This document shows positions 4,459 through 42,339 of a stretch of 64,000 nucleotides of DNA, piece by piece. The stretch is taken from assembly GCA_965215305.1 (NCBI GenBank), contig OZ244041.1, positions 3,177,689 to 3,241,688 on the forward strand, given 5' to 3'. The DNA comes from Alphaproteobacteria bacterium. GTDB taxonomy: Bacteria > Pseudomonadota > Alphaproteobacteria > Bin95. Each line of letters begins with the position of its first letter. Positions within the stretch are counted from its first letter, which is position 1. The translations under genes and the position numbers were made by a program. A model generated the notes under the pieces. That model had not been told where the DNA came from, did no database searches, and saw only the letters and a list, made by a program, of their open reading frames with translations.

Positions 4459-4896
<438 letters not shown>

Positions 4897-6435: not shown

Positions 6436-6449
6436 AGGCAGGGCGGTTC

Positions 6450-11893: not shown

Positions 11894-11922
11894 CAACCCC
11901 GACCGGGAAGGCCCGACCGACG

Positions 11923-12972
11923 ATGCGTATCCTGACCACCCTGCCGCAGAACGACCTGAACGAAGTGCCCGCCGCTGCGGCTGCGGCCGAGGCCGCCGGC
12001 TTTGACGGCGCGCTCACCATGGAGAATCGCCACGACCCGTTCCTGGCGCTCGGCGTCGCCGCCACCGCGACGCAACGGCTGGCGCTCGGCACAGCCGTCG
12101 CCATCGCCTTTCCGCGCAGCCCGATGGTGGTGGCGAATGCCTGCTGGGACCTGCAGACGGCTTCCAAGGGCCGCTTCGCACTCGGCATCGGGCCGCAGAT
12201 CCGCCCGCATAACGAGAAGCGCTTCTCCGTGCCCTGGTCCGCGCCCGTGCCGCGGCTCAGGGAATATGTGCAGGCGTTGCGCGCAATCTGGCGGAGCTGG
12301 GAGACCGGCGAGCGGCTGCGCTTCGAGGGCGAGCACTACACCTTCACCCTGATGACGCCTAACTTCACTCCGGCATCCACAGGCCAGCCCATGGTGCCGG
12401 TCACCCTCGCGGCGGTCGGCGACTATTCGCTGCGCCTCTCGGGCGAGGTCGCGGACGGCGTGCGGCTCCACGGCTTCTGTACGAGGCGCTACCTGGAGGA
12501 AATCTGCCTGCCGCGCATCGCCGAGGGCATGGCGCGGACAGGGCGCAAGCGCGAATCCTTCGAGGTGACAGGCGGCGGCTTCATCGCCACCGGCGCGAAT
12601 GACGAGGAGGTGGAAAAGGCCGTCGATTGGATACGCTACCGCGTCGCCTTCTACGGCTCGACGCCGGGCTACTGGCCGGTGCTGGACCTGCACGATCTCG
12701 GCGATCTCGGGCGCAAGCTCAACCGCATGACCAAGGAAGGCGCCTGGGACAAGATCGCCGCCGAGGTGGACGACGACACGGTGCGCCTGTTCGCTGCCGT
12801 CGGCCGCCATGACGAGCTTGCCGGCGCCGTCGAGGAACGCTTCGGCGGGGCGGCGGACGCCATATACGCCAGCCTGTCCATGGACATGCGGCCGGAGCTG
12901 CCGCCCGACCTCATCCAGGACATCCGCCGCCTGCCCACCGCGTTCAAGGGCTATGCAACCGCCTGGCAATAA
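11923..12972 (+). CDS. LLM-class F420-dependent or flavin-dependent oxidoreductase
   Basis: AGFDGALTMENRHDPFLALGVAA...FALGIGPQ is the luciferase-like monooxygenase fold family. Confidence 0.7.
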   Translation: MRILTTLPQNDLNEVPAAAAAAEAAGFDGALTMENRHDPFLALGVAATATQRLALGTAVAIAFPRSPMVVANACWDLQTASKGRFALGIGPQIRPHNEKRFSVPWSAPVPRLREYVQALRAIWRSWETGERLRFEGEHYTFTLMTPNFTPASTGQPMVPVTLAAVGDYSLRLSGEVADGVRLHGFCTRRYLEEICLPRIAEGMARTGRKRESFEVTGGGFIATGANDEEVEKAVDWIRYRVAFYGSTPGYWPVLDLHDLGDLGRKLNRMTKEGAWDKIAAEVDDDTVRLFAAVGRHDELAGAVEERFGGAADAIYASLSMDMRPELPPDLIQDIRRLPTAFKGYATAWQ

Positions 12973-22635: not shown

Positions 22636-25600
22636 TCACCAGCGCGCGCTGATCTCGAACCCGACAGTATGCTCCGGCTTCGCCCCGTCGCTCTCCCTGC
22701 GTGTCGCCTTCAGCCGGAAGGAGATATCGGGCGCATTCCTCGCCGGCGTGAGCCGCCAGCCAAGGCTGTAATCGCGCGCGCCGGTGGCCAGACCGATCCC
22801 CATATGCGGGCTGCTGATGAAGCGCCCCGAAAGGGCCGGGAAGCCATATGCCCCCTCGGCAGACCAGCGACTCCCGGAGGTCGAGCCGGAGCCCGTGCGC
22901 TCACTCAGCGGATCGGCCTGGAACAGCGCGTCGAGCCCGCCCTCGGCCTGTCCGCCCCAGTCCTGGCGCAGCGCGAAGGACAGGCCTCGTTCCGAGGCCG
23001 GGTCGGGATCGAAGGCGAGCGAGGTCGCGAAGCCCCGGTTCTCCAGGTCTCCCGCGTCATGCGCCACAAGCGCCCGACCCGAAAGGTCGAGCGAGAGGCC
23101 GAGACGCGGGTCCATCCAGGCGATGCCGCCGCCGAGTTCGACCCCGAAGCCGGTCTCGGCATCGCCGCCGTCATGGCGCATGCCCATTTCCAGCTTCGGC
23201 GTGATGCTGGCATCGCCCTCCAGCGGCGCCTTCCAGCTGCCCTCCAGACCAAGCCTGAGCCGCGTCACATCGGAATCCGACGCCGCAAGCCCGCGCGTCT
23301 TCTCCGAGGACGTCCCGGCCCACAGCGCGTCCGAGACCAGCGCCAGCCCCGGGCCGCCTGCCCCGGACTCCGATCCAGGGCTCTCCTGCGTTGGCAGCAG
23401 GTCACCGCGCAGGCCCAGGGACGCCATGCTCCACGAGATGTCCGACTTCAGCATCTCGCCCAGCTCGGGTTTGAGCATTACCTCGCCTACGCCGTGGCCG
23501 AGCGCGCCCCAGAGCTTCACACGCTCCGAAGCCTGCAGGGCCAGATAGGGAATCGCCGCCGTCAGCGTGGCCTCCACCTTGCCGCCCGCCCCGCGCCCCG
23601 CACCGCTGCACGGATTGTCCACATCCATGCCCCCGTCGTCATCCAGACAGTGCTGCGCGCCGGTCCCGGAGCCTGCCCCGGACTCCGATCCGGGGTCGGC
23701 ATAGCTGCCCCCGCCCTTGCCGCTGCTCCGCATCAGCGCCATGCCGGCCAGCCATTGGTCCCGCGCATAGTCCGCGCCCAGCATCGCCGTCATCGCCTCG
23801 CCGTCGAGCGAGAAGCGGCCTTCCCGGCCGTCGAAGCCCGACTGCGCCGCCCGGCCCCAGAAGGCGAGGTTGCCGCCAGTGGCGTCCCGTTCTCCCGTCA
23901 GCGTGAAGCGGCTGCCGAGCAACAGGTCCCGCCCGGAAAGTGTCCGTGACCTGTCGGTTGCCCGCTCATCGCCGAACAGCCGGTCGATGTCGGACAGGGA
24001 CAGCCGGGCGCGATCGAACAGGCTTGTCCCGGACAATGAGCCGTGTGGGGACGCCGCCCCGACACCGGTGGAACCACCGAAGGACAGGGCCTGCCCGGCG
24101 ATCATGCCCTGCATGCCGGCCGTCCGCGGCGCCGCGATACGCCCGGCAATGCCGTCCAGCGCCTGCTCGGCGACAGCGCGCCCGAAGCGTGCCAGCCAGG
24201 CCGCCGGCATCGGGTCCGAATTGACGATGGTGCCGATTGCCAGTTCGTCCGCGATGATGGCGCCCTCTGCCTCGGTCAGCACGACGGTGAGGGTCTCCCG
24301 GCCCTCGTCGTGGAAGTCATCGAAGGTCTCGACCCAGAATTCCCCTCGAGTCGACCCCGGGTAAACGGTCACCCGGCTGTCGGCGTAGCGGAAATCCGCG
24401 TGGGGGACCGCCTCCCCGTAGCTCGGCCCGTGGCCGTTTTCGTTGTCGTGGGGGTTCGTCCCAAATCGGGTCTCCCAGTAAACGACTACCTCGTGGTCCA
24501 CCGCATGGGAGAGCGTGAACGTGAAATGCAAATCGTCGCCCTCCGCCGCCTCGACATCATCAATATGGATCGTCGGCAAGGACGGCACTTCGTCGTCGGC
24601 CACCGCGACGGTGGCGCTGGCGTCTGTCGCGTGCGGGGTGTAGCCGGTTCCCGGTTCGACGGTAATGGCGAGGCTGCCGTCGTCTTCAAGCGTCGAGTCG
24701 TCGACGGTCGGGATGTCAACGGTGACGGTGGCGTCCGTGCCGAGCGTCACGGGCCGCGCGCCGAGCTCTCCGTCCCCGGCGAAGGCGCCGCTTTGCGTCA
24801 CGCGCAGGTTCACGGTGATGTCCTGCGAAGGCACAGGGGCGCCTGTCAGCGTGAAGCGCGCAACGCCCCCTTCGGTGATATCGGCACCGCCGGTGATGCG
24901 CACGACGGTCGCCCGAGCGTCATCGTCATCGTCGTTGTCGGCCACCGCCACTGTCGCCGCGGACGGGCTGCCGACCAGGTAGCCGGTTCCGGCCTCCAGC
25001 GTCGCCGACACGCCGCCATTCGCCTCCTTGAGATCGTCATCCGTTGTCGCGAGCGTGTAGGTGGCCGTATCGCTCCCCGCGGCGATCGTGACCGTCTTCG
25101 ATCCCTCCTCGCCATCCATCAGAAAGTCGCTCACCGCGTCGTCGGCAATGGCCAGCGCGATCTCGAGGTCCGACGCCGGCGCGGGACTTGCCTGGACGGT
25201 GAACACGGCGTCGCCGCCTTCGGTGATGTCGCCGCCGGCCGCAATCGTGATCTCGGGATCGGGGTCGGGGGTGTCGCCTATGATCGTGACCCTCGTGTAA
25301 CACAGGGCGGTCGAGGTGCAATGGGCCGCGGCGGCGTTGAATGGGTAGCTCTTCACACCGGGGAAGCCGCGATCCGGGTTGCCGAGCCACTGGAGGCTGT
25401 CCCAGCTGGCAGTGAAGGTTTTGCCCACGGAACCCTTGCACAACTCGATTTCCAGTTCGATCGTGTCGGTATCGATGTCCTCGGCGATGCGCACCAGGGG
25501 TCCGGTTCTCACCATCCCCTCGGGGTAGGAGGGCCAGTGGCCCCAATCGACCACATCCGTTCCAGGTTCCCTGCAATCGCCCCCACCCTGGGCCGTGCCG

Positions 25601-28600
25601 GGGCCCCAATCGAAATAGAAGGCCACATCAATGCCGTGGCCTTTCAGACCCGCCGGCACGGGCATCAGGATCCGGCTGTTTCTGCCGGCATACACCACCG
25701 TGGCCGTCTCAGGTGGCGTGATCCCGCTCACGGGCTCCCGGATCGTGACGACGGCCGTGTCAGGCTCGCCAAGGGTCACGGTGCCCGGTAGTTCGGATGC
25801 CCGGATTGCCAGCTTGAAGGTCTCATTGGGGTCATTCTGGTTGTCGCGTGTGGTCGAAATGCGCGCCTTCCCACTCGTTGTGCCCGCCCGGATCGTGACC
25901 GTCTGCACGCCACCAACGTAGTCCGCGCCGGGTGTCGCGCTGTAGCCGCCCGGGCTGGTCGCCTCCAACTCAATCATCGTATCGGCAGCAGGGGCCTCGG
26001 ACAGGTTGACCGTCACCGAGAGCGAATCGCCCTCCAGCACCTCGTAGCGCGATGTCGAGAGCGAGACCGTGCCCACCGGCCCCGCATTGTCATTGTCCGT
26101 GATGGTGACCGTGGCCGGGGTAATGGTCAGAGCGCCGGAGCTTCCGGTGACCTCGATCGTCTCATCCTCCTCGTGCAGGGCGTCGTCGGTGGGTGTCAGA
26201 TCGAATGTGCCGGTCTCGCTGGCATCGCCCGCAGCGATGGTGATGTCGAAATTCGACACGGCGCCGTAGTCCGTGCCCGAAATGGCCGTGCCCCCGCCCA
26301 CGCTCACCGTCACCGTCCTGGCGTCCACGTAGCGCGTCGTGCCGTTCACGGCGGCCGTCACCGTGATTTGGGTCAACCCATCCCCCTCGTCCAGCGTGGC
26401 GGGCGACACCGAGAGCGTGATGCCGCTGGGCGCCGCGTCATCGTCGGCGATGGTCAGGGTCTGGTCGGTCGGGTTGGTGACGCCCCCGCCGCTGGCGGTG
26501 GCCGAGACCGTCACCGTCTTGTTCGGCGCGTCAATGTCATTGTCCACCGCCGTGATCGTCACCGCGCCGGTGCTGGTGGTCGCTCCAACCGCGATGGTCA
26601 GGGTGGTGCCGCTCAGGGTGAAATCGCCCGCAGCGGTGTTGGCGCCCGCGGCGGCAACCACCGTCAGGGTCACCGCCTCGTTCGACTTGCCCGATAGGGT
26701 GGCGGTCACTGTGCTGGAGTTCGTGGCGCCACTCTCGTTGATGGTGCCTGGCGTCAACATCAGGGTGACCGTCGGCGTGCCCTCGTCGTCCGTAATGGTG
26801 AGCGTCTGGTCGGCCGGGTTCGTCACCCCGCCGCCCGACGCCGCGCCCGACACCACGACCGATGCATTCGGCGCATCCACGTCATTGTCCACCGCCGTGA
26901 TTGTCACCGTGCCGGTGCTGGTCTTCGAGCCCGCCGCGATCGTCAGGGTCGTGTTGCCGCTCAACGTGACCGGGGCATTGTTCGGCACCGAGACCTCCAC
27001 CGTCACCGCCGCACTCGACTCGCCCGACAGCGTCGCCGTCACCGCGCTGGCGTTGCCATTCCCGCTCTCGTTGATGGTCGTTGGATCCAGCGCCAGTGTC
27101 ACCGTGGGCGTGCCTTCGTCATCCGTGATAGTGAGCGTCTGATCAGTCGGGTCGGAAACCCCGCCGCCGCTGGCAGTGGCCGAGACCGTCACGCTCTTGT
27201 TCGGCGCGTCCACATCGTTGTCCACCGCCGTAATCGTCACCGCACCGGTGCTGGTGGTCGCACCCGCCGCGAAGGTCAGGGTCTTGTTGGTGGTCACCGT
27301 GAAATCGGCCGCGACCGTGTCGGCGCCCGCGACGGCGGCCACCGTCAGGGTCACCGCAACGCTCGACTTGCCCGACAGCGTCGCCGTCACCGTGCTGGCG
27401 TTGCCATTCCCGCTCTCGTTGATGGTGGTTGGCGTCAGCACCAGGGTGACCGTCGGCGTGACCTCGTCATCCGTGAGGGTGATGGCCGTCCCGGCGACGG
27501 TGATGCCGGTCAGCGTGCCTTCAATGCTGATGCCCTCACTGGGCTCGTCTATGTCGTCATCGGTGGGCGTGAGCGTGAAGTCCACATAGCCGCTTGAGGA
27601 GCCCGCATCGATCGTGATGCTCTTGCTCTCAACCTCCGTGTAGTCGGTCCCCTCCTCAGCGCCGTCGGCGTCCGCGCCCACCTCCACCGTCACCGTCTTG
27701 GCCTCGGTGAAGGTCGAGCTGCCGCCCAGCGTGGCCGTCACCCGCACCGTCTTCGCACCGCCATCCTCGGCCAGGGAGGTCTGGGTTCCCATCGTGTCCG
27801 TGTCCGCATCCACCGTGAGCGTCAGTGCCGTCGGCGCCGCGTCATCGTCGGTGATGGTGCCGGTGGCCTGGGCCGTGGATATCGTGCCGCCCTCCGCCTC
27901 GGTCAGCTCCACCAGGAAGGTCTCGTTGCCCTCGTGCAGCGTGTCCTCCGTGGTGTCGACCGTGAAGGTCTGTGTGCCCACATCCTTGGCGAAGGTCAGT
28001 GTCCGCGCCGTCGTTACCCGAGTGTAGTCGGTGGCTGATGCCGCGTTCGCCCCATCGCTGGAGTCCGGCTTGGTGTTCCACTTCACCGACACCGCATTGT
28101 CCATGGCGCCGCTGCGGGTCACCGTGAAGGTAATCGCATCGCCCTCCGACGCACTCGCGTCCGCCACGGCGAACGACGGCTGGGTGTCGTCGTTCCTGAT
28201 CGTCCCCGTCGCCGTGCCCTTGCCCGACTCGATGCTCACCCCGGTGCCGGGGTCCCCGTCGGCCAGCGCCGGGGCGCTCAACACCGCCTTGAACGTCTCG
28301 TCCGGCTCGAACAGGTCGTCCTGCGTCGTCTGCACCTCAACCGTCTGGCTGGTGACGCCAGCGGCGAAGTTCAACGTCTGTGCTGTGGCAATAGCGGTGT
28401 AGTCGTCCGTGCCGGCGGCTTTGACGCCGTCACCACTATCCGCCGCCGTCGCGATCTTCACCTCCGCCACGTTGTCTTCGGCCCCGGCGCGGCTTACGGT
28501 GAACGCCACCTTGCCGCCCTCGGTGGCCTCCGCATCGGCAATCGAGAAACTCACCGGGGCGTCGGTGTCGGTAAGGGTGACTGTCGCGGGGGTGATCGTG

Positions 28601-31600
28601 ATGTCGGTGAGCGTGCCGGTGACGTCGATGGTCTCGTCGGACTCGTCGAGGTCGTCGTCCACCGGCGTCACGGTGAAGCTGCCGGTGTGGCTGGCGGCGC
28701 CAGCGGCGATGGTGATGTTGAAGTTGCTCACCGCCGCATAGTCCGCCGGGGAGGCGGCTGTGCCGTCCGCAACGCTTACCGCCACGGTCTTGGCCTCCAC
28801 GTAGCGCGTCGTGCCGTTCACCGTGGCCGTCACCGTCACCACCGTGGCCCCGGCGTCCTCGGCCACCGTGCTCGGCGTGCCCGAGGTCGAACCGTTGGTG
28901 TCCACGCTCAACGTGATGCCGCTGGGCGCCGCGTCGTCGTCATTGATGGTGCCGGTGGCCTGGGCATCGCTGATGATGGCGCCGACCGGCTCGGTCAGCT
29001 CTACCAGGAAGGTCTCGTTGCCCTCGTGCAGCGTGTCTTCCGTGGTAGCGACCGTGAAGGTCTGTGTGCCCACGCCCTTGGCGAAATCCAGCTTCGTCGC
29101 CGTGGGCATCGCGGTGTAGTCGGTGGTCGAGGCCGCGTTCGCCCCGTCGCTGGAGTCCGCCTTGGTGCGCCACTTCACCGACACCGCGTTGTCCATCGCC
29201 CCGCTACGGGTCACCGTGAAGGTGATCGCATCGCCCTCCGACGCACTCGCGTCCGCCACGGCGAACGACGGCCGGGTGTCGTCGTTCTTGATCGTGCCGA
29301 TGGCCGTGCCCTTGCCCGACTCAATGCTTACCCCGGTGCCCGGATCGTCCTCCGCCAGCGCCGGAGCGCTCAGAACCGCCCGGAACGTCTCGTCCGGCTC
29401 GAACAGGTCGTCCTGCGTGGTCTGCACCTCGACCGTCTGGCTGGTGACCCCGTCGGCAAACTTCAATGTCTGCGCTGGAGAAATGGCAGTGTAGTCGTCC
29501 GTGCCGGCGGCTTTGACGCCGTCACCACTATCCGCCGCCGTCGCGATCTTCACCTCCGCCACATTGTCCCCGGCCCCGGCGCGGCTCACGGTGAAGGTCA
29601 CCTTGCCGCCCTCGGTGGCTTCGGCATCGGCAATCGAGAAACTCACCGGGGCGTCGGTGTCGGTAAGGGTGACTGTCGCGGGGGTGATCGTGATGTCGGT
29701 GAGCGTGCCGGTGACGTCGATGGTCTCGTCGGACTCGTCGAGGTCGTCGTCCACCGGCGTCACGGTGAAGCTGCCGGTGTGGCTGGCGGCGCCAGCGGCG
29801 ATGGTGATGTTGAAGTTGCTCACCGCCGCATAGTCCGCCGGGGAGGCGGCTGTGCCGTCCGCAACGCTTACCGCCACGGTCTTGGCCTCCACGTAGCGCG
29901 TCGTGCCGTTCACCGTGGCCGTCACCGTCACCACCGTGGCCCCGGCATCCTCCGCCACCGTGCTCGGCGTGCCCGCGGTCGAACCGTTCGTGTCCACGCT
30001 CAACGTGATGCCACTCGGCGCCGCGTCATCGTCGGTGATGGTGATGGTGGCGTCAGTAAAGGTGATGTTGGCCTGCGTGCCCTCGACGCTGATGGTCTCG
30101 TTCGGCTCGTCCAGCACGTCACTGGTGGGTGTCAGGGTGAAGTCCACATAACCGGTTTGTTCACCCCCGTCGATCGTGATGGTGAGGGTGCCGATCTCGG
30201 TGTAGTCCGTGTCTTCCGTGGCCGAGTCCGCCGACTTGCCCACTTCAAACGTGACCGCCTGGTTGGCCGCAAAGCGCGTGGCGCTGGTGATGGTCGCGGT
30301 GACCCGCACCGTGGTGGCCCCGGCCTCCTCGCCCACACTAGTCGGCGTGCCGTTCCCGCCGGCGTTGGTGTCTACGGCCAGGGTAATAGCGCTGGGCGCA
30401 GCGTCGTCGTCATTGATGGTGATGGTGGCGTCAGTAAAGGTGATATCGGCCTGCGTGCCATGCACGCTGATGGTCTCGTTCGGCTCGTCCAGCACGTCAC
30501 TGGTGGGCGTCAGGGTGAAGTCCACATAGCCGCTGGTTTCACCCCCGTCGATCGTGATGGTGAGGGTGCCCACCTCGGTGTAGTCCGTGCCTTCGGTGGC
30601 CGAGTCCGCCGACTTGCCCACTTCAAACGTGACCGCCTGGTTGGCCGCAAAGCGCGTGGCGCTGGTGATGGTTGCGGTGACCCGCACCGTGGTGGCCGCG
30701 GCCCCCTCAGCCAAAGTGGTCGGCGTGCCGTCCCCTCCGGCGTTGGTGTCCACCGACAACGTAATCGCGCTGGGCGCCGCGTCGTCGTCATTGATGGTGA
30801 TGGAGGAATTGGTGAACGTGACGCCGGTGAGCGTGCCGTCCAGGCTGATGGTCTCGCTTCCCTCAAACAGCACGTCGGTGGTGGGCGTGAGCATGAACTC
30901 CACGTAGCCGCTGGCCGCGCCGATGGGGATTTCGATGCTCTGCTGGTCCACCATGGCGTAGTCCGTGCCTTCCGTTGCGGTGTCCCCATCCTTGCCCACC
31001 GTTACCGTGACCGTCTGCGCGGTGGCAAAGCGCGTCGTGCCGTCAATGGTGGCCGTGACCCGCACCGTCTTGACGCCGCCTTCCTCCGCGATACTGCTCT
31101 GCACATTGTTCGTGCCGGTGTCCGCGTCCACCGACAGGGTGATCGCGCCGGGCGCCGCGTCGTCGTCCGTGATGGTGATGGCGGTATTGGTGAACGTGAC
31201 GTCGGTGAGCGTCCCCTCCACGCTGATGGTCTCGCTTCCCTCGGACAGCACGTCGCTGGTCGGCGTGAGCGGGAAGTCCACATAGGCGCTGGCCGCGCCG
31301 ATGGGGATTTCGATGCTCTGCTCGCCCACCATGGCGTAGTCCGTGCCTTCCGTGGCGGAGTCTCCGTCCTTGCCCACCGTTACCGCGACCGTCTGCGCGG
31401 TGGCAAAGCGCGTCGTGCCGACGATGGTGGCGGTGACCCGCACCGTGGTGGCCCCAGCCTCCTCTCCGATATTTGTCGGCGTGCCCGAGGTCGCACCGTT
31501 GGTATCCACGCTCAACGTGATGCCGCTCGGCGCGTCGTCGTCGTCAGTGATGGTGCCGGTGGCCTCGGCCGTGGATATCGTGCCGCCCTCCGCCCCGGTC

Positions 31601-34600
31601 AGCTCCACCAGGAAGGTCTCGTTACCCTCGGCAAGCACGTCCTCGGTGGTGGCGACCGTGAAGGTCTGTGTGCCCACATCCTTGGCGAAGCTCAGCGTCG
31701 TCGCCGCTGTTACCGGCGTGTAGTCGGTGGCTGACGCCGCGTCCGCTCCGGTGTCCGGCTTGGTGTTCCACTTCACCGACACCGCGTTGTCCATGGCGCC
31801 TGAGCGGGTCACCGTGAAGGTGATGTCGTCGCCTTCCGTGGCACTGGCATCGGCCACGGCGAACGACGGCTCGGTGTCGTCGTTCCTGATCGTGCCGGTG
31901 GCCCTGCCCTTGCCCGCCTCAATGCTTGCCCCGGTGCCCGGGTCCCCGTCGGCCAGCGCCGGGGCGCTCAGCACCGCCTTGAACGTCTCGTCCGGTTCGA
32001 ACAGGTCGTCCTGTGTGGTCTGTACCTCAACCGTCTGACTGGCAACGCCCTTGGCAAAGTTCAATGTCTGCGCCGTGGCGATGGCGGTGTAATCGTCCGC
32101 ATCGGCGGCATTGACCCCATCGCCGCTGTCCGTGGCCGTGGTCACCTTCACCGACGCCACATTGTCTCCGGCCCCGGTGCGGCTCACCATGAAGGTCACC
32201 TTGCCGCCCTCGGTGGCCTCCGCATCGGCAATCGAGAAGCTCACCGGGTCGTCATTGTCGGTGAAGGTCACTGTTGCGCCGGTGATCGTGACGCCGCTCA
32301 CCGTGCCCGTCACGTCGATCGTCTCGTTGGCCTCGTCGAGGTCGTCGTCCACCGGCGTCACGGTGAAACTGCCGGTGTGGCTGGCCGCGCCCGCAGCGAT
32401 GGTGATGTTGAAGCCGCTCACCGCCGCATAGTCCGCCGGCGACGCCGCCGTGCCGTCCACCACGCTCACCGCCACGGTCTTCGCGTCCACGTAGCGCGTC
32501 GTGCCGTTCACCGTGGCTGTCACCGTCACCACCGTCGCCCCGGCGTCCTCTTCTACCGTGCTCGGCGTGCCGTCCTCCGCGCCGTTCGTGTCCACGCTCA
32601 GTGTGATGCCGCTGGGCGCCTCGTCATCGTCCGTGAGCGTAATCTCATCAGGCGTTATCGTGACGCCGGACAGGGTGCCCGTGACGTCGATGGTCTCGTT
32701 GCCTTCGGCCAGCACGTCATTTTCGGGGGTGAGCGTGAAGGTGTTGCTGGCGTCGTCCTCACCCGCGCCGATGGTGATGTCGAAACTGTCCACGGCCGTG
32801 TAGTCCGTGCCCGAAATGGCCGTCCCGCCGCCGACGCTGACCGACACGGTCCTGGCCGCCGCATAGCGGGTGGCGCCGTTCACCGCGGCGGTGACGGTGA
32901 TGGTCTTGGCGCCGCCGTTCTCCGTGACCGAGTCGGGACTCGCCGTGAGCGTGATGCCGCTCGGCGCGGCGTCGTCGTCGGTCACCGTCACGGTCACGCT
33001 CTTGGCGGTTTCGTCTTCGTAGTCCGTGCCGTCGGCGCTCACCGTGTGGGAGATGTCCACCTCGCGCTCGTCGCCCGTATTGTCGATGACGTCGGCCTGG
33101 CCGGTGACGGTCACCGTTTGTGCCATATTCCAGTCGTCGGCATCGAAGACCAGGCTCGCCGTATTGATCCTGGCCACGGATTCATCGCCGCTTGTCAGGT
33201 TGACCGTCACCGCGCCGGTGGGCTGGCTTGTGAGCACCACCTCGTAGGTTTCCTGGTCCTCCCTGGTGGCCGCGGTGCTCGTGTTGTCCGCCTCGGCCAC
33301 GGTCAATGCGGTGGGAGTGACGCTGACGCCGCGGGTATCGTCATCCGTGATCGTCCCGCTGGCGGCGCCCGCGCCTTCGGCCGTCGAGACCGTGGCGTTT
33401 GTCGGCATGCCCAGCGTGACCGTGATCGTTTCGTTTTCCTCATCCACCTCATCGCCGGCCACGGGGATTTCGATATTCGCCTGCGTCATCCCCGCGGTGA
33501 TCGTTACGGAGCGCGGGTCGGGCTCGGTGTAGTCCGTGCCTGCCGTGGCTGTGCCGCCCAGCGTGTAGGGCACCGTCACCTCCAGGCCGCTGACCGCCGA
33601 GAGCGTGACGGCGAAGGTCATGTTGTTGGCGGGATTGGGGGCCGCCACGTCGCCTTCGGTCACCGCCGCGGCGTCGGCGACGGATACCGTGGGCGTGGGG
33701 TCGTTGTCATTGATGGTTCCCGTGCCGTCCAGCGTGGTGGCGCCGCCCGTCAGTGTGGCATTGGAAGGCGAGGACAGGCGCACGACCACCGTCTCGTCGG
33801 GTTCATCGATGTCATCGCCGTTCACGGTGACATCCACGGACTTGCTGGTTTCGCCGGGAGCGAAGGACAGCGTGCCGCCGGCCAGGGTCTCGTAGTCCGG
33901 GCCGCTCACACCCATGCTAGTGGTTGCGGTGCCGGCGCCGGTGTCCGCGTAGTCCACGGTCACCGTGTTGCCGCTTCCGTCTGCCGGCTTCAGTTGCACG
34001 GTGAAGGTGAGCGTCGCCGTGGCGCCGCTGTCCACCTCGGTCACGGACGGACTGTTGATGGACAGCGTCGGCGGGCCATCGTCATCGTTGACCGTGACCG
34101 TCACACCCCTCGCCGTCGCGCCGTCGTAATCCGTCCCCGTGGCGGTCACGGTATGGGTAATCGCCACAGCGCGCCGGTCATTCGGATTGTCGATATTGTC
34201 AGGCACCGCGGTCACGGTCACCGTTTGCGCCACACTCCAGTTGGAGGCGGTGAATGTGAGCACCGCCGGAGCGACCCCGGCGACAGTCGTATCGCCACTG
34301 GCAACCCCTATCGTCACCGTGCCGCCGGAGGGTGCGCTGTCGAGCACCACGGTATAGGTGCCCTCGTCTTCGTCCACGTCCATGGTTGCCGCGTTGTCCG
34401 CCTCATCCAGCGTCAACGTGGCCTTCGACACGGTGATGCCGCGGGTGTCGTCGTCCGTGATCGTGAGGGTCTGGTTCCCCGGCGCCACCAGTTCGTTGCC
34501 GCCGGTGGCGGTGGCGGAAACGGTGACGGTCTTGTCCGCCGCATCCACCTCGTTATCGACCGCGGTAATGGTCACGACCCCGGTGCTGGCTTGCGTGTTG

Positions 34601-35103
34601 GCCGGGATCGTCAGCGTGGTGTTGTCGCTCAGGGCAAGGTCGCCCGCGACTGCGGGGGCGACCGCCGTGGCGGAGACCGTGAGCGTCACGGCGTCGCTGG
34701 ACTCCCCGTCCATGGTGGCCGTCACCGTGCTGGCGTTGGTGGCTCCGCTCTCGTTTATCGATGCCGGCGTCAGCACCAGCGTGACGGTGGGCGTGGCGTC
34801 GTTGTCTTCAATGGTGAAGCTCGTGCCTTTCACCGTCACTCCGGCGAGCTCACCGGCCACGGTGACGGTCTCATCCGGTTCGTCCACCTTGTCGTCATTC
34901 AGGGTGAGTGTCAGGTCGTAGGAGACGTTCTCCTCGCCGGCGGACAGGGTGATGTCGAACTCATCCACCGTGTTGTAGTCGCCGCCGGTTCCCTCGGTGG
35001 CGGTGTCCTCGTCGGAGTCGCCTACGGTGATGGTGATGGTTTGGTCGTCGGCAAACTGGGTGTCGCCGTCAATCGTTGCGGTGATCCGCACTGTGGGTTT
35101 ATC
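22636..35103 (-). pseudogene. C-terminal ~4,150-aa part of a giant Calx-beta-repeat autotransporter-type adhesin, separated from its 5' part by the IS66 insertion
   Basis: A continuous frame carries dozens of Calx-beta-like units (T[AE]GxDY..., D[DE]xxDExxE[TS]), with a C-terminal domain of about 590 aa resembling an autotransporter beta-barrel (NLAFWGRAAQSGFDGREGRFSLDGEAMTAMLGADY...GFEISARW, ending in a terminal aromatic). The apparent N-terminal 190 aa of the track ORF (35133-35685) is chance read-through of IS66 DNA in a high-GC frame. Confidence 0.75.
35096..35103. repeat. Target-site duplication GGTTTATC (left copy)
   Basis: Identical 8-mers immediately flank the IS at 35096-35103 and 37858-37865. 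The 8-bp length is characteristic of the IS66 family. Confidence 0.8.
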
Positions 35104-35132
35104 GTAAGCGCTGCCAGAGAGGCACGCCGCTT

Positions 35133-36974
35133 TCAGCTTGACGGCGGCTTGAAGTGCCCGGGTAGCAGCTCGTCGATGCGGCTGTTTGGATGGCCGGCGG
35201 CGATTTTCTCGAGCGTGTCCTTGAGCCAGGCGTAGGGCTCGATCTGGTTCAGTTTCGCCGTTTCTATCAACGAGGCGATACGTCCCCATGCGGCGGCGCC
35301 TTCGTCGTGGCCGGCGAACAATGCGTTTTTTCTCGACAGGGCAATCGGCCGTGCGAGGTTCTCGACGGCATTGCTGTCCATCTCGACGCGGCCGTCGGCG
35401 AGGAAGAGCTGGAGACCGTCCCAGTGGCGGGCGATATAGGCGAGCTTTTCGCCGAGGCGGGACTTGGGCGAGACGCGGGCGCGCTGTTGCTTCAGCCAGT
35501 CGCTGAAGGCCTGGACCAGGGGCGCGGAACGCGCCCGGCGTTCGGCGAGGCGGCCCTCGGGCGGACAGCCGCGGATATCGGCCTCGATGGCGTAGAGTTC
35601 GGCGATCCGGCGCAAGCCCTCGGCCGCGATCTCCGAGCCGCTGCTGTCGTAGATTTCGCGGAGCCGGCGCCTCGCATGGGACCAACAGTATGCCAGCCGC
35701 AGCGGCGCGCCGCCCTTGCGGCCCGGCTGGGTCAGCCGGTTGTAACCGGCATATCCATCGACTTGCAGGATGCCGTCGAAGCCGTCGAGGAACCTTTCGG
35801 CATGCTCGCCGCCGCGCCCGGGCGCATAGAAGTACATCACGCCCGGCGGATCGGGCCCGCCCCAGGCGCGATCATCGCGGGCAAGCGCCCACAGCCAGCC
35901 GGTCTTGGTCCGGCCGCGGCCCGGCTGGGTCAGCCGGTTGTAACCGGCATATCCATCGACTTGCAGGATGCCGTCGAAGCCGTCGAGGAACCTTTCGGCA
36001 TGCTCGCCGCCGCGCCCGGGCGCATAGAAGTACATCACGCCCGGCGGATCGGGCCCGCCCCAGGCGCGATCATCGCGGGCAAGCGCCCACAGCCAGCCGG
36101 TCTTGGTCCGGCCGCGGCCTGGATCGAGCACCGGCGCGCGCGTCTCGTCCATGAACAGCTTGGAAGAGCGCTTGAGATGCGCCGCCAGCCGGTCGGTCAC
36201 CGGCCTCAGGTGGAACGCCGCCTTGCCGACCCAGCCGGCCAGCGTCGAGCGGTCCAGATCGAGGCCCGAGCGCGCGTAGATCTGCGCCTGACGGTACAAC
36301 GGACAATGATCGGCATACTTCGAGATCAGGACATGGGCGATGGCGCCCTCGGTCGGCAGGCCGCCTTCGATCAGCCAAGCCGGCGCCGGCGCCTGGGTGA
36401 CGCCCTGCTCGCAGGCCCGGCAGGCATATTTCGGGCGCACCGTGACCAGCACCCGGAGCTGCGCCGGCACGATGTCCAGGCGCTCCGTGCGGTCCTCGCC
36501 GATCTTCACCATCTCCCCGCAGCCGCAGGGACAGAGCGTGCTCTCCGGCTCGATCACCTGCTCAATGCGCTTCAGATGTTCCGGCAGATGGCCGATATTG
36601 CGTTCGGCACGAGGCCGTTTCGGCGAGCACGGCGGCGACGGATCGCCAGTCGAGGCCGCCGCCTCCACTTCCGCAGCCGCGCCCTCCAACTCCTCGAACG
36701 CCAGCTGGCGCTCGTCCGCCGTCAACCTCTCCGACCTCTTGCCATACAGCAGGCGGATCAGCTCCAGGTTCAGATGTTCGAGACGGCGGATGCGCGCAAC
36801 TTGCTTCTCGTTGCGGCCCGCCAGCGCATCCTTCTCAATGGCAAGACAGGCTTTCTCTTCCGCCAGCGTCTCGTTCTCGGCCCTCAGCGCCTCCAGCGCC
36901 GCGATCGCCTGCACCGCAGCGTCGCGCTGTTCGGGCGTCAGCGTTCCAAGGTCGATCTGTGCAAGGGCCAGCAT
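35133..36974 (-). CDS. tnpC: IS66-family transposase TnpC (contains an in-frame 66-aa tandem duplication)
   Basis: An N-terminal leucine-zipper/coiled-coil region is followed by a zinc-finger-like CPCGCGEM and a DDE region (LQVDGYAGYN). Start chosen at MLALAQIDLG; the track ORF extends to 37115. Confidence 0.75.
   Translation of the reverse strand: MLALAQIDLGTLTPEQRDAAVQAIAALEALRAENETLAEEKACLAIEKDALAGRNEKQVARIRRLEHLNLELIRLLYGKRSERLTADERQLAFEELEGAAAEVEAAASTGDPSPPCSPKRPRAERNIGHLPEHLKRIEQVIEPESTLCPCGCGEMVKIGEDRTERLDIVPAQLRVLVTVRPKYACRACEQGVTQAPAPAWLIEGGLPTEGAIAHVLISKYADHCPLYRQAQIYARSGLDLDRSTLAGWVGKAAFHLRPVTDRLAAHLKRSSKLFMDETRAPVLDPGRGRTKTGWLWALARDDRAWGGPDPPGVMYFYAPGRGGEHAERFLDGFDGILQVDGYAGYNRLTQPGRGRTKTGWLWALARDDRAWGGPDPPGVMYFYAPGRGGEHAERFLDGFDGILQVDGYAGYNRLTQPGRKGGAPLRLAYCWSHARRRLREIYDSSGSEIAAEGLRRIAELYAIEADIRGCPPEGRLAERRARSAPLVQAFSDWLKQQRARVSPKSRLGEKLAYIARHWDGLQLFLADGRVEMDSNAVENLARPIALSRKNALFAGHDEGAAAWGRIASLIETAKLNQIEPYAWLKDTLEKIAAGHPNSRIDELLPGHFKPPSS
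35718..36113. repeat. Perfect 198-bp tandem duplication (2 copies) inside tnpC
   Basis: The sequences at 35718-35915 and 35916-36113 are identical by direct reading, encoding RGRTKTGWLWALARDDRAWGGPDPPGVMYFYAPGRGGEHAERFLDGFDGILQVDGYAGYNRLTQPG twice. Confidence 0.85.
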
Positions 36975-37029
36975 GGCCCGCTCGATAGCACAGTGTCGGG
37001 GAGCCGGATGACCCGATCCGCCGGCTGAG

Positions 37030-37383
37030 TCATTCCGCCTCAGCCGGGCGCCGCACCGACAGCGCCCGCACGCGCCGCCAGTCCAGGCCGGCGAACAGCG
37101 TCTCGAACTGCGCATGGCTCAGCGACATCACACCGTCGCGGATCGCAGGCCATACAAAGCCCTGCTCCTCCAGACGCTTGTACACCATGACCAACCCGGT
37201 CCCGTCCCAGTAAACCAGCTTCAGCCTGTCAGCTCGCCTCGATCGAAAAACGTATACCGTGCCCGTGAACGGGTCACGGCGCAGCGCGCTCTTCACATAG
37301 GCGACAAGTCCGTCGTGGGCCTTGCGGAAGTCCACGGGCTTCGTCGCCACAACGATCCGCACTCGGTTCGATGGGAAGATCAT
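37030..37383 (-). CDS. tnpB: IS66-family TnpB (IS66 Orf2-like)
   Basis: MIFPSNRVRIVVATKPVDFRKAHDGLVAYVKSALRRDPFTGTVYVFRSRRADRLKLVYWDGTGLVMVYKRLE is a canonical IS66 orf2. Its start overlaps the tnpA stop (ATGA). Confidence 0.8.
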   Translation of the reverse strand: MIFPSNRVRIVVATKPVDFRKAHDGLVAYVKSALRRDPFTGTVYVFRSRRADRLKLVYWDGTGLVMVYKRLEEQGFVWPAIRDGVMSLSHAQFETLFAGLDWRRVRALSVRRPAEAE

Positions 37384-37784
37384 CGCGGCGCGTTCAGCGC
37401 ACAGACAATCTCCGCAAGCCGACAAGCCGGCGTCCCCGCGTCCAGACGCACCGTGACCCTGCCGAGAACCACCTCCAGGCTCTCGCCGCTCGCCTTAGGA
37501 GCTCCGTTCCCCTCCGCCCGGACCACCAGCGGCGCAAACGCCACAGGCGTCTCCGCCGCAGGCAAAACCAGACGGCCGTCCCGCGCCAGCCCACGCCAGG
37601 TCGACACCTGGTTCGGGTTGACAGCCCAACGCCGCGCAACACCCCGGACCGTCGCCCCCGCCTCAAGCGTCTCGGCAACGATCCGCGCCTTCACATCTTC
37701 CGGCCAACGACGACGGCCCGAAGAACCCGGCATCACCTCAACGTTACTGAGAAACTCTGTTGAGACCTTCATTGAGAAACTCAC
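37380..37784 (-). CDS. tnpA: IS66-family TnpA (HTH accessory protein)
   Basis: 134 aa. ARIVAETLEAGATVRGVARRWAVNPNQVSTWR is the HTH typical of IS66 orf1. Confidence 0.7.
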   Translation of the reverse strand: MSFSMKVSTEFLSNVEVMPGSSGRRRWPEDVKARIVAETLEAGATVRGVARRWAVNPNQVSTWRGLARDGRLVLPAAETPVAFAPLVVRAEGNGAPKASGESLEVVLGRVTVRLDAGTPACRLAEIVCALNAPR

Positions 37785-37857
37785 CTCCCGCTCCCTGCAT
37801 AGCGGTGAATCTCAAATCACGCCCTCAACTGGAAGGTGCCCCCCGCGCAGCGCTTAC

Positions 37858-37865
37858 GGTTTATC
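37858..37865. repeat. Target-site duplication GGTTTATC (right copy)
   Basis: See the left copy. Confidence 0.8.
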
Positions 37866-40754
37866 GGCGCCTTCGCTGATCGTGTTCTGGTCATCGGCGG
37901 TATCGGTGTCGGTATCGACCGTGATCTTGAGCGCCGTGGGCGCCTCGTCGTTATCGAGGACGGTGACTTCCACATCCTCGACTGTCTCGTCTTTGTAGTC
38001 CGTGTCTGCGGCGCTGACCGTGTGGGTGATGGTGGTGGTCTTCTGGTTGCCGGTGTCGTCGATAGTGTCGTCTTTGGCGATCATGGTCACCGTCTGCGCC
38101 ATCTCCCAGTTGTCCGCGTCAAACGTCAGGCTGGACGGGTCCGCCGTGGCTACGGTCGGACCCGGGTTGGTAATATCGACCGTTACCGTGCCTCCTTCGG
38201 GTTGGCTGGTAAGTGCCACCTCGTAGGTGCCCTTGTTTTCCTCTTTATCGCTGGTGGCCGGGTTGTCTGCCTCATCGATGGTCAGCGTGGTCGGCGTCAC
38301 GGTGATGCCGCGGGTGTCGTCGTCCTTGATCGTGATGTCGGCTTGGGTGACCGTCATCCCGGTGAGGGCGCCCTCGACGCTTAGCGTCTCGTCGTCTTCA
38401 TCAATCCCGTCGTTGACGGGCGTTAGCTCAAACGTGCCTTTACCGCTTGCCTCTGTTGCCGGGATGGTGATTTCAATCGTGCCAGCAACCTCCGCGTAGT
38501 CCGTGCCCTCGACTGCGCCGTCCCCCTGCTTGCCCACGGTGACGGTCACGGTCTGATCGGTGGCGAACCGCGTGGGGCTGTCGATGGTCGCGGTGACGTG
38601 AACCGTGGTTTTGTCCGCAGCTTCAGCGATGGTGGCTTGGTTGCCGTCGGTGTCGGCGTCGGTATCCACCGTAATCTCAAGTGCCGTAGGAGCGGCGTCG
38701 TCGTCGGTGATGGTGCCGGTGGCCGTGTCGTCCTCAATGCCGGGTTTGGGTTCACCTCCCGTGTCCTTGGCATCGCTCAACATCACCAGGAAAGTTTCGT
38801 TCGGCTCGTCAATGACGTCCTGGATCGTTGTAACCTCGAAGGTCTGCTTCAGTTTGTTTTTTCCGAACTCCAGCATCCCTGAGCGCGTCGCGTAGTCTGA
38901 ACGGGCCGTTGCGGGATCTGTTCCATCGCCGTCATCGGCCGTGGCCACCCGCACCGACAACGTGTTCTCCATTGCACCGGTGCGCTTTACCTCGAAGGCG
39001 AGCGTGCCGCCCTCAGTCGCAGTTACGTCACTGACGGAAAGCATCGGCTGGGGGTCGTTGTCATTAATGGTCAGCGCGAGTTTGCCAGACGTATTAATGT
39101 GGGGGATATTATTTTCATTGGCACGGCGACTCAGACTAATCATGGCCATCTCTGTTGCTTCATACAGATCATCATCCACAACTGTCAGCTCTACCGTGCA
39201 TTTTTTCTTGTCCCAGGACGTACAGTCGCCAGGTATGCTGAGCACTTTTTCCTTAATAGCACCGACCTTATAATCAGATCCATGACTAGCCTTACCCGTG
39301 AAATTGAACACAAATTTAGGATTGGGTTCCACAACATCATATGAGAATGGGGCACCTCCCGAAGGCGGCGCTTTAACAGGACGGCTCATTTCTATTTCGA
39401 ACGTTGCCTTGTTATTCATCGAAGGATCTTCCGACAAAGAGAACGAAGCAGGGGCGCTAAGTGTCACCTTGGTCGGGGTAGTGTCCTCAATGATGACCTC
39501 AAATCTGCTGCGATCTCCCTTCTTGTAGTCGTTCGGCAGTCTACCCTCATCGATTTCAACGGCCAGAAGTGTATAATGTCTATCGTCAGTGGGATTTCTT
39601 GTGGTCTCTAGCCGAACGTTACCAGACTTCTGGCCCGCCTTGATTTGAATTTTGTCAGGTAGAGTAAAGTTATTCCACCCGTCCTCTGCTGGATAAACGG
39701 TCGCCGTTATGGGTATCTCAATATCACTCGATGGCGCTTCACCGACCAATGTCGCAGTGACAGTTGTACCGGTGCCCTCCTCCAACTCGACCTGTGTTCT
39801 TTGATCTCCACCGTGGAGATAGACGATTCTTTTTCCTGGGGAAGGCTGGTCATCGTCCTTGATCGTGACCTTCGATTTTTCCGAGAAATTGCCGCTTTTT
39901 TTGAAATAAACCTTATTGTAATCATTACCTAAAGTGTTACCACTATCTCTGTTGAAGCTCTGAAACTCTAACTCGAATACCTCATCCGGCTCGGCGACGT
40001 TGTCATCGATAGCCGTAATGTCAATAGTGCCCGTTTTAGTATTGGCTTCAATTATCACTTCCTGGAATGACCACGTATAGTCAGCCATTGTTGCGCCGCC
40101 GTCAGGGACATTTCTCGTGGCAGTTCTATGGGAATTGGGGTGATCTACATCATTAATGCCGATTCTCACCTTATGAGGCACTGGCTCACTGAGCGTGAAT
40201 GTGAGTGTCTGTGTTTCTCCCTCTATAATGTTGATAGGATCGGGCGTTAATGTGAGGGTCACCCGATCGTCTTCTTCAATAATTCCCAAGGCATCTACTT
40301 CGAAGTTATTGCCGTTATATATTCCGCTAAGCCTCAGGATGAATTCCTCTTCCTTGGCTTCATATTCGGTATCTTGAATGGTCTGCACGGTAATCGGATT
40401 GGAACCGGTCTCGTTGGCTGCAAATGTTATAATGCCTGAGGTCGCCGTGAAGTCGGCCGGGGAATTTGCACGCTTATAGGACCTATTATGCTCACTATCG
40501 TGCGTCGCATAATTCACAGTGAGGGCCTGCGAGGAATCGTCGCTGCGGGAGACCATAAAGGTAATCGTGCCTCCCTCAGTGATTTTAGCGTTCTGGACCG
40601 AAACCGGGGGATGCTGCGAATTCTGGGCCTTCGCTTCCGGCGGGAGTCCGGCCAGCATCGCCAGCGACAACAATGCTGCCGACAGGAAGCCGCGCCATCT
40701 GCGGAGCCGAGGCGTTCCACACTCGCCACGCGGCGGCATATAGCGCAAACCCAT
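37858..40754 (-). pseudogene. N-terminal ~965-aa part of the same giant adhesin (Sec signal peptide + Calx-beta repeats), cut off by the IS66 insertion
   Basis: A signal peptide MGLRYMPPRG...RLRRWRGFLSAALLSLAMLAGLPPEAKA|QN is followed by Calx-beta units. The stop codon TAA is supplied by the IS end (GTAAGCG). The frame joins seamlessly with 22636-35103 when the IS and one TSD copy are removed. Confidence 0.75.
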
Positions 40755-40997
40755 TACCGCCGGGCAGTAAGGGTGAAGCGTCGGGGGTGCGGGTCAGCAC
40801 CTGCCCGAAAGGCATTCGGGGAATATCGTCGAGGCGGCTGTTCAGACTGCCGGCCTGCAATGACAGAAGGGTTCGGGGCTGGCGGAGGAACCGGGTTGGC
40901 GGCCGGGTGCGGCCCGCCCGCAGCGGTTCGCGCAAACTCAGGCAGGCATGTCCAACGGCGTAACCGGCCCCGCCGCGCGCCGGACGGACTCATCACC

Positions 40998-41037
40998 GGC
41001 GGCTCGGCGGCTCGGCGGCTCGGCGGCTCGGCGGCTC
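40998..41037. repeat. Octanucleotide tandem repeat (GGCGGCTC)x5
   Basis: Read directly from the sequence. It lies about 245-285 bp upstream of the adhesin start codon, in the divergent intergenic region. Confidence 0.85.
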
Positions 41038-41429
41038 ATTTTAACCACCTTATCCGCCGCCAGTGTCAAGAGCCGCCGCAAGGTTCCGGCGCCGCAACAG
41101 AGCGACTCAACGAAATCGCAGCCAGTCGCGGCCATCGGGCCGGCTAGCGGCCCGGTCAACATGCCTGTCATGGTTCCCCCAAACCATTGCCAACGCCCAA
41201 AAAACCGCCGACTGCATAAAATACCGCGCCTCCGGCGGCGGCTCGCCTTCTACATAAAATGTCGTGGCTATGCAATGATGACATAACATTATTGGTGTCC
41301 GGCCCATCATCCAACGACCGGACCCGGTTCCGGGGCGGCGGGTCCCGGTCCGTGCGGGCTTCAAGCGACGGATATCGAGCTGCTGTGAGCGGTCCGGCCA
41401 TGAAGGCCTGCATCGCAAGGGAGGAACAG

Positions 41430-41705
41430 ATGGACAAGCGGGACGCGCCGCAGTCGGCCTCGGCGGCGGAGGAAGCCCTGATCGGCGAGATACCGGCGGT
41501 ATTCGTCAACAAGGTCTTCGTTTCGCCCATGCCGGGCGGGGCAAAGATCACATTTGCGGAAGCGCGCCGGGCGGCGGGCGAGGACGGTGCGGCGCCGCGT
41601 GTGGCGGTCTATCTGCATCATGGCGATCTCGCCGCCTTGCGCCGCCTGCTCGACTGGACGGCGGAAGCGTCCGATGCGCCGCGCTCCGGGGGGTCGCTGC
41701 ACTGA
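41430..41705 (+). CDS. Small hypothetical protein (~91 aa; possibly DUF3467-like)
   Basis: ORF 41259-41705; the internal start MDKRDAPQ is preferred. There is weak resemblance to DUF3467 (IPAVFVNKVFVSP...ITFAE) and no strong motif. Confidence 0.3.
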   Translation: MDKRDAPQSASAAEEALIGEIPAVFVNKVFVSPMPGGAKITFAEARRAAGEDGAAPRVAVYLHHGDLAALRRLLDWTAEASDAPRSGGSLH

Positions 41706-41721
41706 AGCCCGTCCGGGCCGT

Positions 41722-42339
41722 TTATGCCGGAGCCAGGCTTATCGGCGACTCGGCGAAAACCCGGTAGCTCTGCGATTTCGGCCTGTCCCGGTCCTCGTCC
41801 CTGACATAGCGGATGGAGGATGCGCCGAGCAGGGACCGCGGCAGGACCATCGCGCGGATGAAACGGCTCGGAACATCGAGCGACGCCTGCGCGAACACGG
41901 GCTCCGGGCCGCTTTCGAACCAGGCGCCGCCGGGCCCGTAGGACGAGGAGCGGCCCTCCGTGTCGATCCTGATTCCCCCTTCCCGAAGGCATCTGATTCC
42001 CGGGCCCTGATGGGTGTGGAGCAGCGCCGCGCCGCCCGGCGGGAAGGCGACGCTGTCAAGCCGGAGCAGGAGGTCGTCGGCAATCGCGGCCGGATCGAAC
42101 CCATCGGCAAGGCGGAGCATGGCCCGATGGGCGTATGCGGCGGGCCCCTCATTTGCAGGCGCAACCTCCCACCGCCAGACCGTAGCGCCCTCGCCGCCGG
42201 CGCACAGCTGCAGCGCCTCCGCCAGGACGACGCCTTCGTCAGCCGGAATATCCTGTCCATTCACCGAGACGCCGCCAGCGGAAACATAGAGCGCCCTCGG
42301 CAGAGGATCGTCGAACCGGACCTCCTCGCCGCCGAACAG
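41722..42339 (-). CDS. Cupin-domain protein
   Basis: A cupin motif (PGGAALLHTHQGPGIRCLREGGIRI, i.e. G(x)5HxH(x)3-4E(x)6G). Start chosen at MPYEMRLFE so as not to overlap the upstream hydantoinase gene. Confidence 0.5.
   Translation of the reverse strand: MFGGEEVRFDDPLPRALYVSAGGVSVNGQDIPADEGVVLAEALQLCAGGEGATVWRWEVAPANEGPAAYAHRAMLRLADGFDPAAIADDLLLRLDSVAFPPGGAALLHTHQGPGIRCLREGGIRIDTEGRSSSYGPGGAWFESGPEPVFAQASLDVPSRFIRAMVLPRSLLGASSIRYVRDEDRDRPKSQSYRVFAESPISLAPA

Follow-up and report, generated by a model that had tools for sequence, protein, structure and literature searches.

A giant Calx-beta protein gene with a C-terminal beta-barrel, split by an IS66-family insertion in an alphaproteobacterial genome

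Results

An IS66-family element splits one giant gene

The DNA analysed here (the window) is a stretch of 64,000 nt on the forward strand of contig OZ244041.1 (positions 3,177,689 to 3,241,688) from the alphaproteobacterial assembly GCA_965215305.1. Two minus-strand open reading frames (ORFs), at 22636–35685 (4,349 aa) and 37854–40754 (966 aa), lie on either side of a block of transposase-like ORFs, and are the two parts of one putative adhesin gene whose product would comprise a leader, a long array of Calx-beta domains and a C-terminal beta-barrel (Table 1). A first-pass annotation, made from the DNA letters and their ORFs, had proposed a single gene split by an IS66 element with an intact 8-bp target duplication; this was borne out, and its coordinates were off by a few bases at most.

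The IS66 family is characterized by a tnpA-tnpB-tnpC layout and an 8-bp target duplication. Pfam searches of the inserted block gave this three-gene organisation with a DDE_Tnp_IS66 transposase. The terminal inverted repeat GTAAGCGCTGC, which starts with the GTAAGCG typical of the family, is present at both ends of the element (the two ends read GTAAGCGCTGCCAGAGAGGCAC and, in reverse complement, GTAAGCGCTGCGCGGGGGGCAC), and the 8-bp target sequence GGTTTATC stands on both sides as a direct repeat. This copy differs from the family in its tnpC gene, where 198 bp within the DDE domain are tandemly duplicated, exactly and in frame. Either the duplication disables the transposase or it is an assembly artefact. 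Because 66 aa are duplicated within the TnpC DDE domain, which Pfam matched in two stretches, the element may be unable to move by itself, unless the duplication is such an artefact. The borders of the 198-bp repeat share the short GC-rich microhomology GCGGCC.

Deletion of the element together with one copy of the direct repeat joins 40754..37866 to 35103..22636 on the minus strand, giving 15,357 nt, a length divisible by three, and an ORF of 5,118 aa with a single, terminal stop codon. Restoration of the frame depends on the exact boundaries of the element, and a boundary one base off fails. Across the junction (...SEGADKP|TVRITATID...), residues 921–1010 align ungapped with residues 979–1068 of P0122, an intact ortholog of 7,631 aa, with 78% identity over 90 aa, and the restored protein is collinear with P0122 over its whole length. 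The analysis confirms one minus-strand gene split by an IS66-family insertion, and the in-frame joining proposed earlier (about 15.36 kb and 5,100 aa) agrees with these figures.

It is very improbable that the insertion or its 198-bp duplication is an assembly artefact that hides an intact gene. Misassemblies typically fall in highly repetitive genes and in IS elements with many copies, the copies of the 198-bp repeat are identical, and other assemblies also have orthologs broken into several called ORFs; yet both inverted repeats of the element are complete, the direct repeat of target sequence is perfect, and excising exactly the element and one repeat restores a frame that matches P0122 residue by residue, an outcome that a chimeric join would not produce. 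Neither the IS-target junction nor the restored empty site had an exact match in JGI metagenome contigs.

The TAA that closes the 966-aa 5′ ORF is formed by the terminus of the element (...CCG|TAAGCG). The 5′ fragment retains the leader and ends before the barrel. On the other side, the listed 3′ ORF extends to a TTG at 35685, which falls within tnpC in a different frame and is an improbable start. Since the 5′ fragment lacks the barrel and the 3′ remainder lacks a leader, the gene is inactivated and is a pseudogene in this genome, as the first-pass annotation had also concluded for its present state. At most, a 966-aa barrel-less fragment would be made, and it would be periplasmic. Exact look-ups of this truncated product and of the neighbouring SDR matched no record.

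Table 1. Coordinates of the split adhesin gene, its encoded domains and the inserted element, as positions in the window.
Feature	Position	Strand	Details
IS66-family insertion sequence	35104..37857	-	2,754 bp; terminal inverted repeats start GTAAGCGCTGC; same orientation as the adhesin gene
Target-site duplication copy GGTTTATC	35096..35103		8-bp direct repeat
Target-site duplication copy GGTTTATC	37858..37865		8-bp direct repeat
IS tnpA	37380..37784	-	HTH_Tnp_1, E=4.7e-15
IS tnpB	37030..37425	-	TnpB_IS66 / IS66 Orf2-like, E=2.2e-36
IS tnpC	35133..37115	-	660 aa; DDE_Tnp_IS66, E=4.9e-119 in two stretches; zf-IS66, LZ_Tnp_IS66, IS66_C
Tandem duplication inside tnpC	35718..36113		2 x 198 bp; copies 100% identical; in frame; adds 66 aa within the DDE domain
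Adhesin gene, 5′ part	37866..40754	-	codons 1–963; ORF now continues through the target-site copy to the TAA at the IS end; 966-aa product
Adhesin gene, 3′ part	22636..35103	-	codons 964–5118 and stop; now without its own leader or start
Predicted Sec-type leader	40626..40754	-	residues 1–43; Arg-rich n-region, hydrophobic core LSAALLSLAMLAGL, AKA|Q cleavage motif; by inspection
Divergent distal head	38955..40754	-	residues 1–600; about 5 Calx-beta-like units
Calx-beta array, 3′ portion	24211..35103	-	residues 964–4594; with 37866–40610 makes 36 units of ~105–125 aa
Non-repeat Cys-containing insert	25240..25734	-	165 aa, residues 4087–4251; 98–100% conserved in P0122
Conserved pre-barrel alpha-helix MPAAWLARFGRAVAEQALDGIAGRIA	24133..24210	-	residues 4595–4620; pLDDT about 90
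C-terminal beta-barrel (predicted)	22642..23871	-	residues 4708–5117 and terminal Trp; 18 predicted amphipathic strands; ~410 aa

A leader, a divergent head and a long Calx-beta array

The restored protein begins with a predicted Sec-type leader, as had been claimed, with a hydrophobic core of 14 residues; its first ~26 residues are conserved in P0122. The following part of the protein, up to residue 600, differs from the rest of the gene. GC content at third codon positions (GC3) is 0.49–0.60 in this region vs. 0.85–0.90 in the other 13.5 kb, and identity to P0122 rises from 27–50% over residues 1–700 through 64–78% over residues 700–1000 to 86–100% from about residue 1000 onward. Among 5.8 billion proteins, only two decent homologs of the head were found, P0274 (54%) and P0275 (40%). 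Because GC3 and identity to P0122 are low and decent homologs number only two, the head looks like a module recently swapped in from a donor of lower GC content.

Searches against Pfam matched Calx-beta (PF03160) on the 3′ part with E=5e-91 in 12 stretches, and on the first 1,100 aa with E=7.6e-25; such matches to the profile cannot be chance. Ca2+ binding by the array is predicted from its membership of this domain family. With an iterative hidden Markov model (HMM) built from the protein's own repeats, the several tens of units anticipated in the first-pass annotation were resolved into 36, over residues 49–4594. Between 26000 and 32700, groups of three units form higher-order repeats of ~364 aa (~1,092 bp) that are mutually 93–95% identical, and a tandem array with a 378-bp period lies at 29985–31563. 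Besides Calx-beta, weak matches to a LapA domain (PF20579) were seen; no other family was matched on the 3′ part at E≤0.01, and RTX repeats (PF00353) were not detected by Pfam. The array is interrupted three units before the barrel by the 165-aa insert, for which (residues 4087–4251) no Pfam family match was obtained.

Close relatives carry larger alleles at the same locus

The adhesin is found at the same locus, in larger versions, in a conspecific and in close relatives. One related metagenome contig has the intact P0122. A 120-kb contig (L082; ENA ERZ25070917) matches the window at 99.05% nucleotide identity along 11 kb of the downstream flank; its neighbouring genes, for an SDR and a CoA-transferase, are also shared, and it is on these grounds conspecific. 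Its adhesin is longer than the window copy and is called as three ORFs (positions 1–12058; 4,511+, 1,121 and 685 aa). On a 3.3-Mb contig (L001), a 6,944-aa and a 361-aa ORF are called at positions 1–11086, overlapping or adjacent. Both come from long-read metagenome assemblies, and the split calls represent either real frameshifts, and hence recurrent decay, or consensus errors in the repeats. Repeat content differs by ~2,500 aa between close relatives (5,118 vs. 7,631 aa). The near-identical higher-order repeats are obvious substrates for such differences in allele length, and the two observations together imply frequent recombinational expansion and contraction.

The C-terminal domain is predicted to form an 18-strand barrel

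Beyond the array lies a non-repeat C-terminal domain of 524 aa (residues 4595–5118), shorter than the estimate of about 590 aa in the first-pass annotation. It is highly conserved, and at 90% identity over 1,335 clusters match it. Hydrophobicity alternates, in the manner of transmembrane strands, in 18/18 predicted strands of the family alignment, each being amphipathic over at least 7 residues. The protein ends in ...GFEISARW; all 40 of 40 aligned sequences have this terminal Trp, as do nearly all of the genome loci, and, like type Va autotransporters, the protein has a C-terminal aromatic beta-signal for BAM.

The domain was modelled twice with AlphaFold. A 537-aa construct starting at residue 4582 of the protein (40-sequence alignment; mean predicted local distance difference test, pLDDT, 71) gave, in construct numbering, a confident helix at 14–39, a small hairpin, ~45 disordered residues and 18 long strands within 127–536. 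The barrel alone (433 aa; 71 sequences; pLDDT 80.7; predicted TM-score 0.71) was again modelled with 18 long strands, at higher confidence. Barrels of type V secretion systems have 12 strands in types Va, Vc and Ve and 16 strands in types Vb and Vd, so that neither model gives the 12-stranded barrel of type Va.

Relationship to autotransporters is seen in the homologs. Four of 40 close homologs (63–70% identical to the window copy) pass the autotransporter profile PF03797, with 28–38 bits against a cut-off of 26 (best 1.8e-9), and their alignments cover profile positions 1–207 of 255 only and reach no more than ~224 residues into the barrel region. A few family members carry the NCBI name autotransporter beta-barrel protein, and the window copy itself comes near the threshold of TIGR01414. 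The barrel appears to be related in sequence to the autotransporter beta-domain over roughly strands 1–10 and to exceed 12 strands; given the 18 predicted strands and this kinship, it would be a non-canonical variant of the type Va translocator. Of the earlier description of an autotransporter-like C-terminus, the predicted outer-membrane beta-barrel with an aromatic last residue stands, whereas the type Va label is supported in part only. The PF03797 scan, which had been set beforehand as the refuting test, split in the same way, with no match in the window copy and the partial matches in four homologs.

Could the protein nevertheless be a canonical type Va autotransporter, with a 12-strand barrel and long loops or an inserted beta-subdomain whose extra strands lie outside the membrane barrel? 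We consider this unlikely. The same 18 strands appear in both models, all of them amphipathic; the PF03797 alignments stop short of a further ~170 aa with 8 more strands; and the window copy itself has no PF03797 match. In Foldseek searches BrkA was the top match, but TM-scores to autotransporter barrels reached only 0.55–0.59. Structural comparison of the barrel-only model gave 12.6 for AIDA-I, 12.3 for BrkA and 11.8 for EstA, with 188–201 residues aligned, vs. 313–340 residues aligned with 22-strand barrels. This model is closer to VDAC, TonB-dependent receptors and maltoporin than to autotransporter barrels, and resembles barrels of 18–22 strands more than those of autotransporters. The strong autotransporter likeness of the longer model would stem from its helix-plus-barrel arrangement.

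The resemblance of the barrel-only model to large channel-type barrels, together with a helix that is not contiguous with strand 1, would also fit a barrel that is a mere outer-membrane anchor or channel. The Calx-beta array would then be periplasmic, in the layout of PelB, BcsC, LptD and BamA, or its export would need another system. We regard this arrangement as improbable.

The barrel defines a large family with diverse passengers

Using HMMER to scan 1.84 billion representatives at 50% identity, we found 19,183, 11,614 and 5,108 family clusters at E≤1e-3, 1e-10 and 1e-30, respectively. Among the best 150 matches, the barrel is always C-terminal, and protein lengths are mostly 1,000–3,700 aa, with giants of 7,300, 7,203, 5,031 and 4,991 aa. 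The first-pass annotation had judged the protein exceptionally large and atypical. This does not hold: thousands of database proteins share the architecture, those of 7,631, 7,300 and 7,203 aa among them, and giant size is not exceptional within the barrel family.

At least 328 loci in GTDB species representatives encode a relative. Eighty of these (L002–L081) were kept, all from metagenome-assembled genomes (MAGs) and spanning at least 8 phyla or classes, among them Alphaproteobacteria, Binatia, Acidobacteria/Vicinamibacteria, Nitrospirales, Spirochaetia, Gammaproteobacteria, Gemmatimonadota and Paracoccaceae. Their barrels are 46–64% identical to the window copy (87% in the closest relative, L002), and several genomes have at least 3 paralogs. 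Stop-to-stop ORFs with the barrel at their end commonly span 1,500–3,800+ aa, so the 500–900-aa "proteins" of the first search are largely fragments from short contigs. Other passengers occur on the same barrel, namely Spondin_N (P0108, P0114) and leucine-rich repeats (LRR; P0068). Such a distribution points to horizontal transfer of a module that displays extracellular-matrix-like domains, though some of it may come from errors in binning.

Two sources of the family lead back to sponges. P0001, the closest relative at NCBI (88% identity), belongs to the whole-genome shotgun set LXNI01, the metagenome of the sponge Sarcotragus foetidus (PMC5099237), and one GTDB locus (L052) comes from sample SB0677, other bins of which are sponge-associated Entoporibacteria (PMC7883664). 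The window organism is probably sponge-associated. Sponge symbionts of different hosts and phyla are reported to be enriched in Calx-beta domains (PMC9531527, PMC11706023), and the sponge Aggregation Factor is itself made of Calx-beta domains (PMC5400394, PMC11670116). In the literature on Calx-beta, autotransporters and sponges, we found no paper in which an autotransporter-type barrel of these bacteria is connected with Calx-beta arrays, and the very large barrel family is apparently undescribed.

Discussion

A probable type V-like surface fibre

We read the restored protein, with a probability of about 0.65, as a type V-like, self-anchored surface fibre of a Gram-negative alphaproteobacterium, once 5,118 aa long. 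The Sec leader would deliver the chain to the periplasm, where BAM would recognise the terminal-Trp beta-signal and insert the ~410-aa C-terminal barrel into the outer membrane. The conserved upstream helix would join barrel and passenger, and the passenger would cross the outer membrane with its C-terminal end first, as in type V secretion. The 36 Calx-beta beta-sandwich domains could then fold successively outside the cell, stiffened by seawater Ca2+, into a stalk of the order of 100+ nm with the divergent N-terminal head as its distal binding tip. Later, the IS66-family element entered at codon 963/964, leaving the leader and the first 7–8 domains on one side and the other domains with the barrel on the other.

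Several points weigh against this reading. The sequence directly provides a parts list, to which topology, surface exposure, Ca2+ binding and adhesion are added from what is known of the domain families. The Sec leader was judged by inspection only. Residues 4596–5118 gave no match to PF03797 or any other Pfam family at E≤0.1, and TIGR01414 scored 13.8 bits on the C-terminus, below its cut-off of 16. A profile built from the barrel alignment, searched against PDB sequences, found no autotransporter and no barrel; it returned only a weak match to the Calx-beta domain of NCX, which came from a few passenger columns in the alignment. Barrel closure and a place for the helix in the pore are presumed, and in the longer model helix 4595–4620 lies ~85 mostly low-confidence residues ahead of strand 1, a distance that is absent in type Va. 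Mean-field direct coupling analysis of 334 barrel sequences (Meff 186), comparing pairing of strand 1 with strand 18 vs. strand 12, was noisy, with adjacent-strand controls at 0.20 against a background of 0.13 ± 0.05. Many outer-membrane proteins with a C-terminal barrel retain their N-terminal part in the periplasm. As for habitat, a sponge origin is documented for LXNI01 and SB0677 only, and for the remaining MAGs (COS/CAR/RHO bins and chromosome-level OZ/OY MAGs) it is suggested by the bin names.

Comparison with known adhesins and secretion systems

The surface-fibre reading places the protein near several known systems, from each of which it departs. Type Va autotransporters (AIDA-I, NalP, Hbp/EspP, BrkA, EstA; PF03797, TIGR01414) have a barrel of ~250–280 aa and 12 strands, with a helical linker that passes through the pore and adjoins strand 1, whereas here the barrel has ~410 aa and 18 predicted strands and the helix is ~85 residues away. 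Their passenger is typically, though not universally, a beta-helix with an autochaperone; in its place stand 36 Calx-beta beta-sandwich units and the 165-aa insert.

Inverse autotransporters of type Ve (intimin/invasin) are alike in that an outer-membrane barrel displays a tandem chain of Ig-like beta-sandwich domains with a distal binding tip, and sequential folding of Ig-like passenger domains is thought to drive type Ve export. However, their 12-strand barrel is N-terminal and the passenger C-terminal, whereas the barrel described here stands at the extreme C-terminus; with the domain order reversed, an assignment to type Ve was rejected.

Very long Ca2+-stiffened arrays of Ig-like or Calx-beta-like domains that project a binding region are also known from the giant RTX adhesins of type I secretion systems (T1SS), such as LapA, SiiE and MpIBP, and from BapP of Pseudoalteromonas tunicata (PMC7616799, PMC12153261). 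Unlike the T1SS adhesins, the window protein has no RTX repeats, C-terminal T1SS signal or N-terminal retention module, and has instead a Sec-type leader and a C-terminal barrel; a barrel is absent from BapP. A T1SS/RTX assignment of the LapA type was also rejected, on the basis of the leader, the barrel C-terminus and the lack of any Pfam match to RTX or other secretion-related families.

The sponge Aggregation Factor, in the presumed host phylum, likewise uses long tandem Calx-beta arrays in Ca2+-dependent cell adhesion (PMC5400394, PMC11670116). Its components differ in being eukaryotic secreted proteoglycans with Wreath domains and no barrel, and the likeness noted here is one of architecture.

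Implications

The interest of the locus extends beyond the window copy, which is a disrupted member of a family that combines giant Calx-beta passengers with an expanded barrel related to autotransporters and whose traceable sources are sponge metagenomes. If the surface-fibre reading is true, an autotransporter-related barrel of ~18 strands with Ig-like passengers of 1,000–7,600 aa would be a new solution for moving very large cargo across the outer membrane. Calx-beta has so far been reported only as an enriched "eukaryotic-like" domain; the family supplies a concrete architecture for it and a probable location on the symbiont surface, and suggests the Calx-beta-based Aggregation Factor as the obvious host counterpart. 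Giant adhesin genes of this kind are unstable, as seen in IS disruption, in repeat changes of ~2,500 aa between close relatives and in the apparent replacement of the head.

A wider proposal, which we offer tentatively and consider unlikely, is that the barrel family is an undescribed type V-like subclass, with an expanded ~18-strand autotransporter-derived barrel, a detached plug or linker helix and beta-sandwich passengers of up to ~7,600 aa, which has passed by horizontal transfer between symbionts of sponges that belong to many phyla. The extracellular-matrix-like cargo of these barrels (Calx-beta arrays, Spondin_N, LRR) might act, in dependence on Ca2+, as a mimic or a ligand of the host's own Calx-beta Aggregation Factor, so that symbionts are recognised, retained or spared phagocytosis, and the swapped low-GC3 head might tune specificity.

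Other observations in the window

An HMM scan of all ORFs in the window found no second barrel or Calx-beta gene. In the ~950 bp upstream of the adhesin start (40755–41700), there was no convincing ORF and no family match, and GC content is lower (0.61 over 40001–42000). A promoter scan upstream of the start revealed no sigma-70-like promoter, and no clear Shine-Dalgarno sequence precedes the ATG at 40754.

The loop between barrel strands 3 and 4 (~23600–23655) is missing from the conspecific L082 and from P0122, and the DNA alignment breaks there; the window copy keeps in this loop a Cys pair (...HCLDDDGGMDVDNPC...) that matches the family consensus C..x..C.

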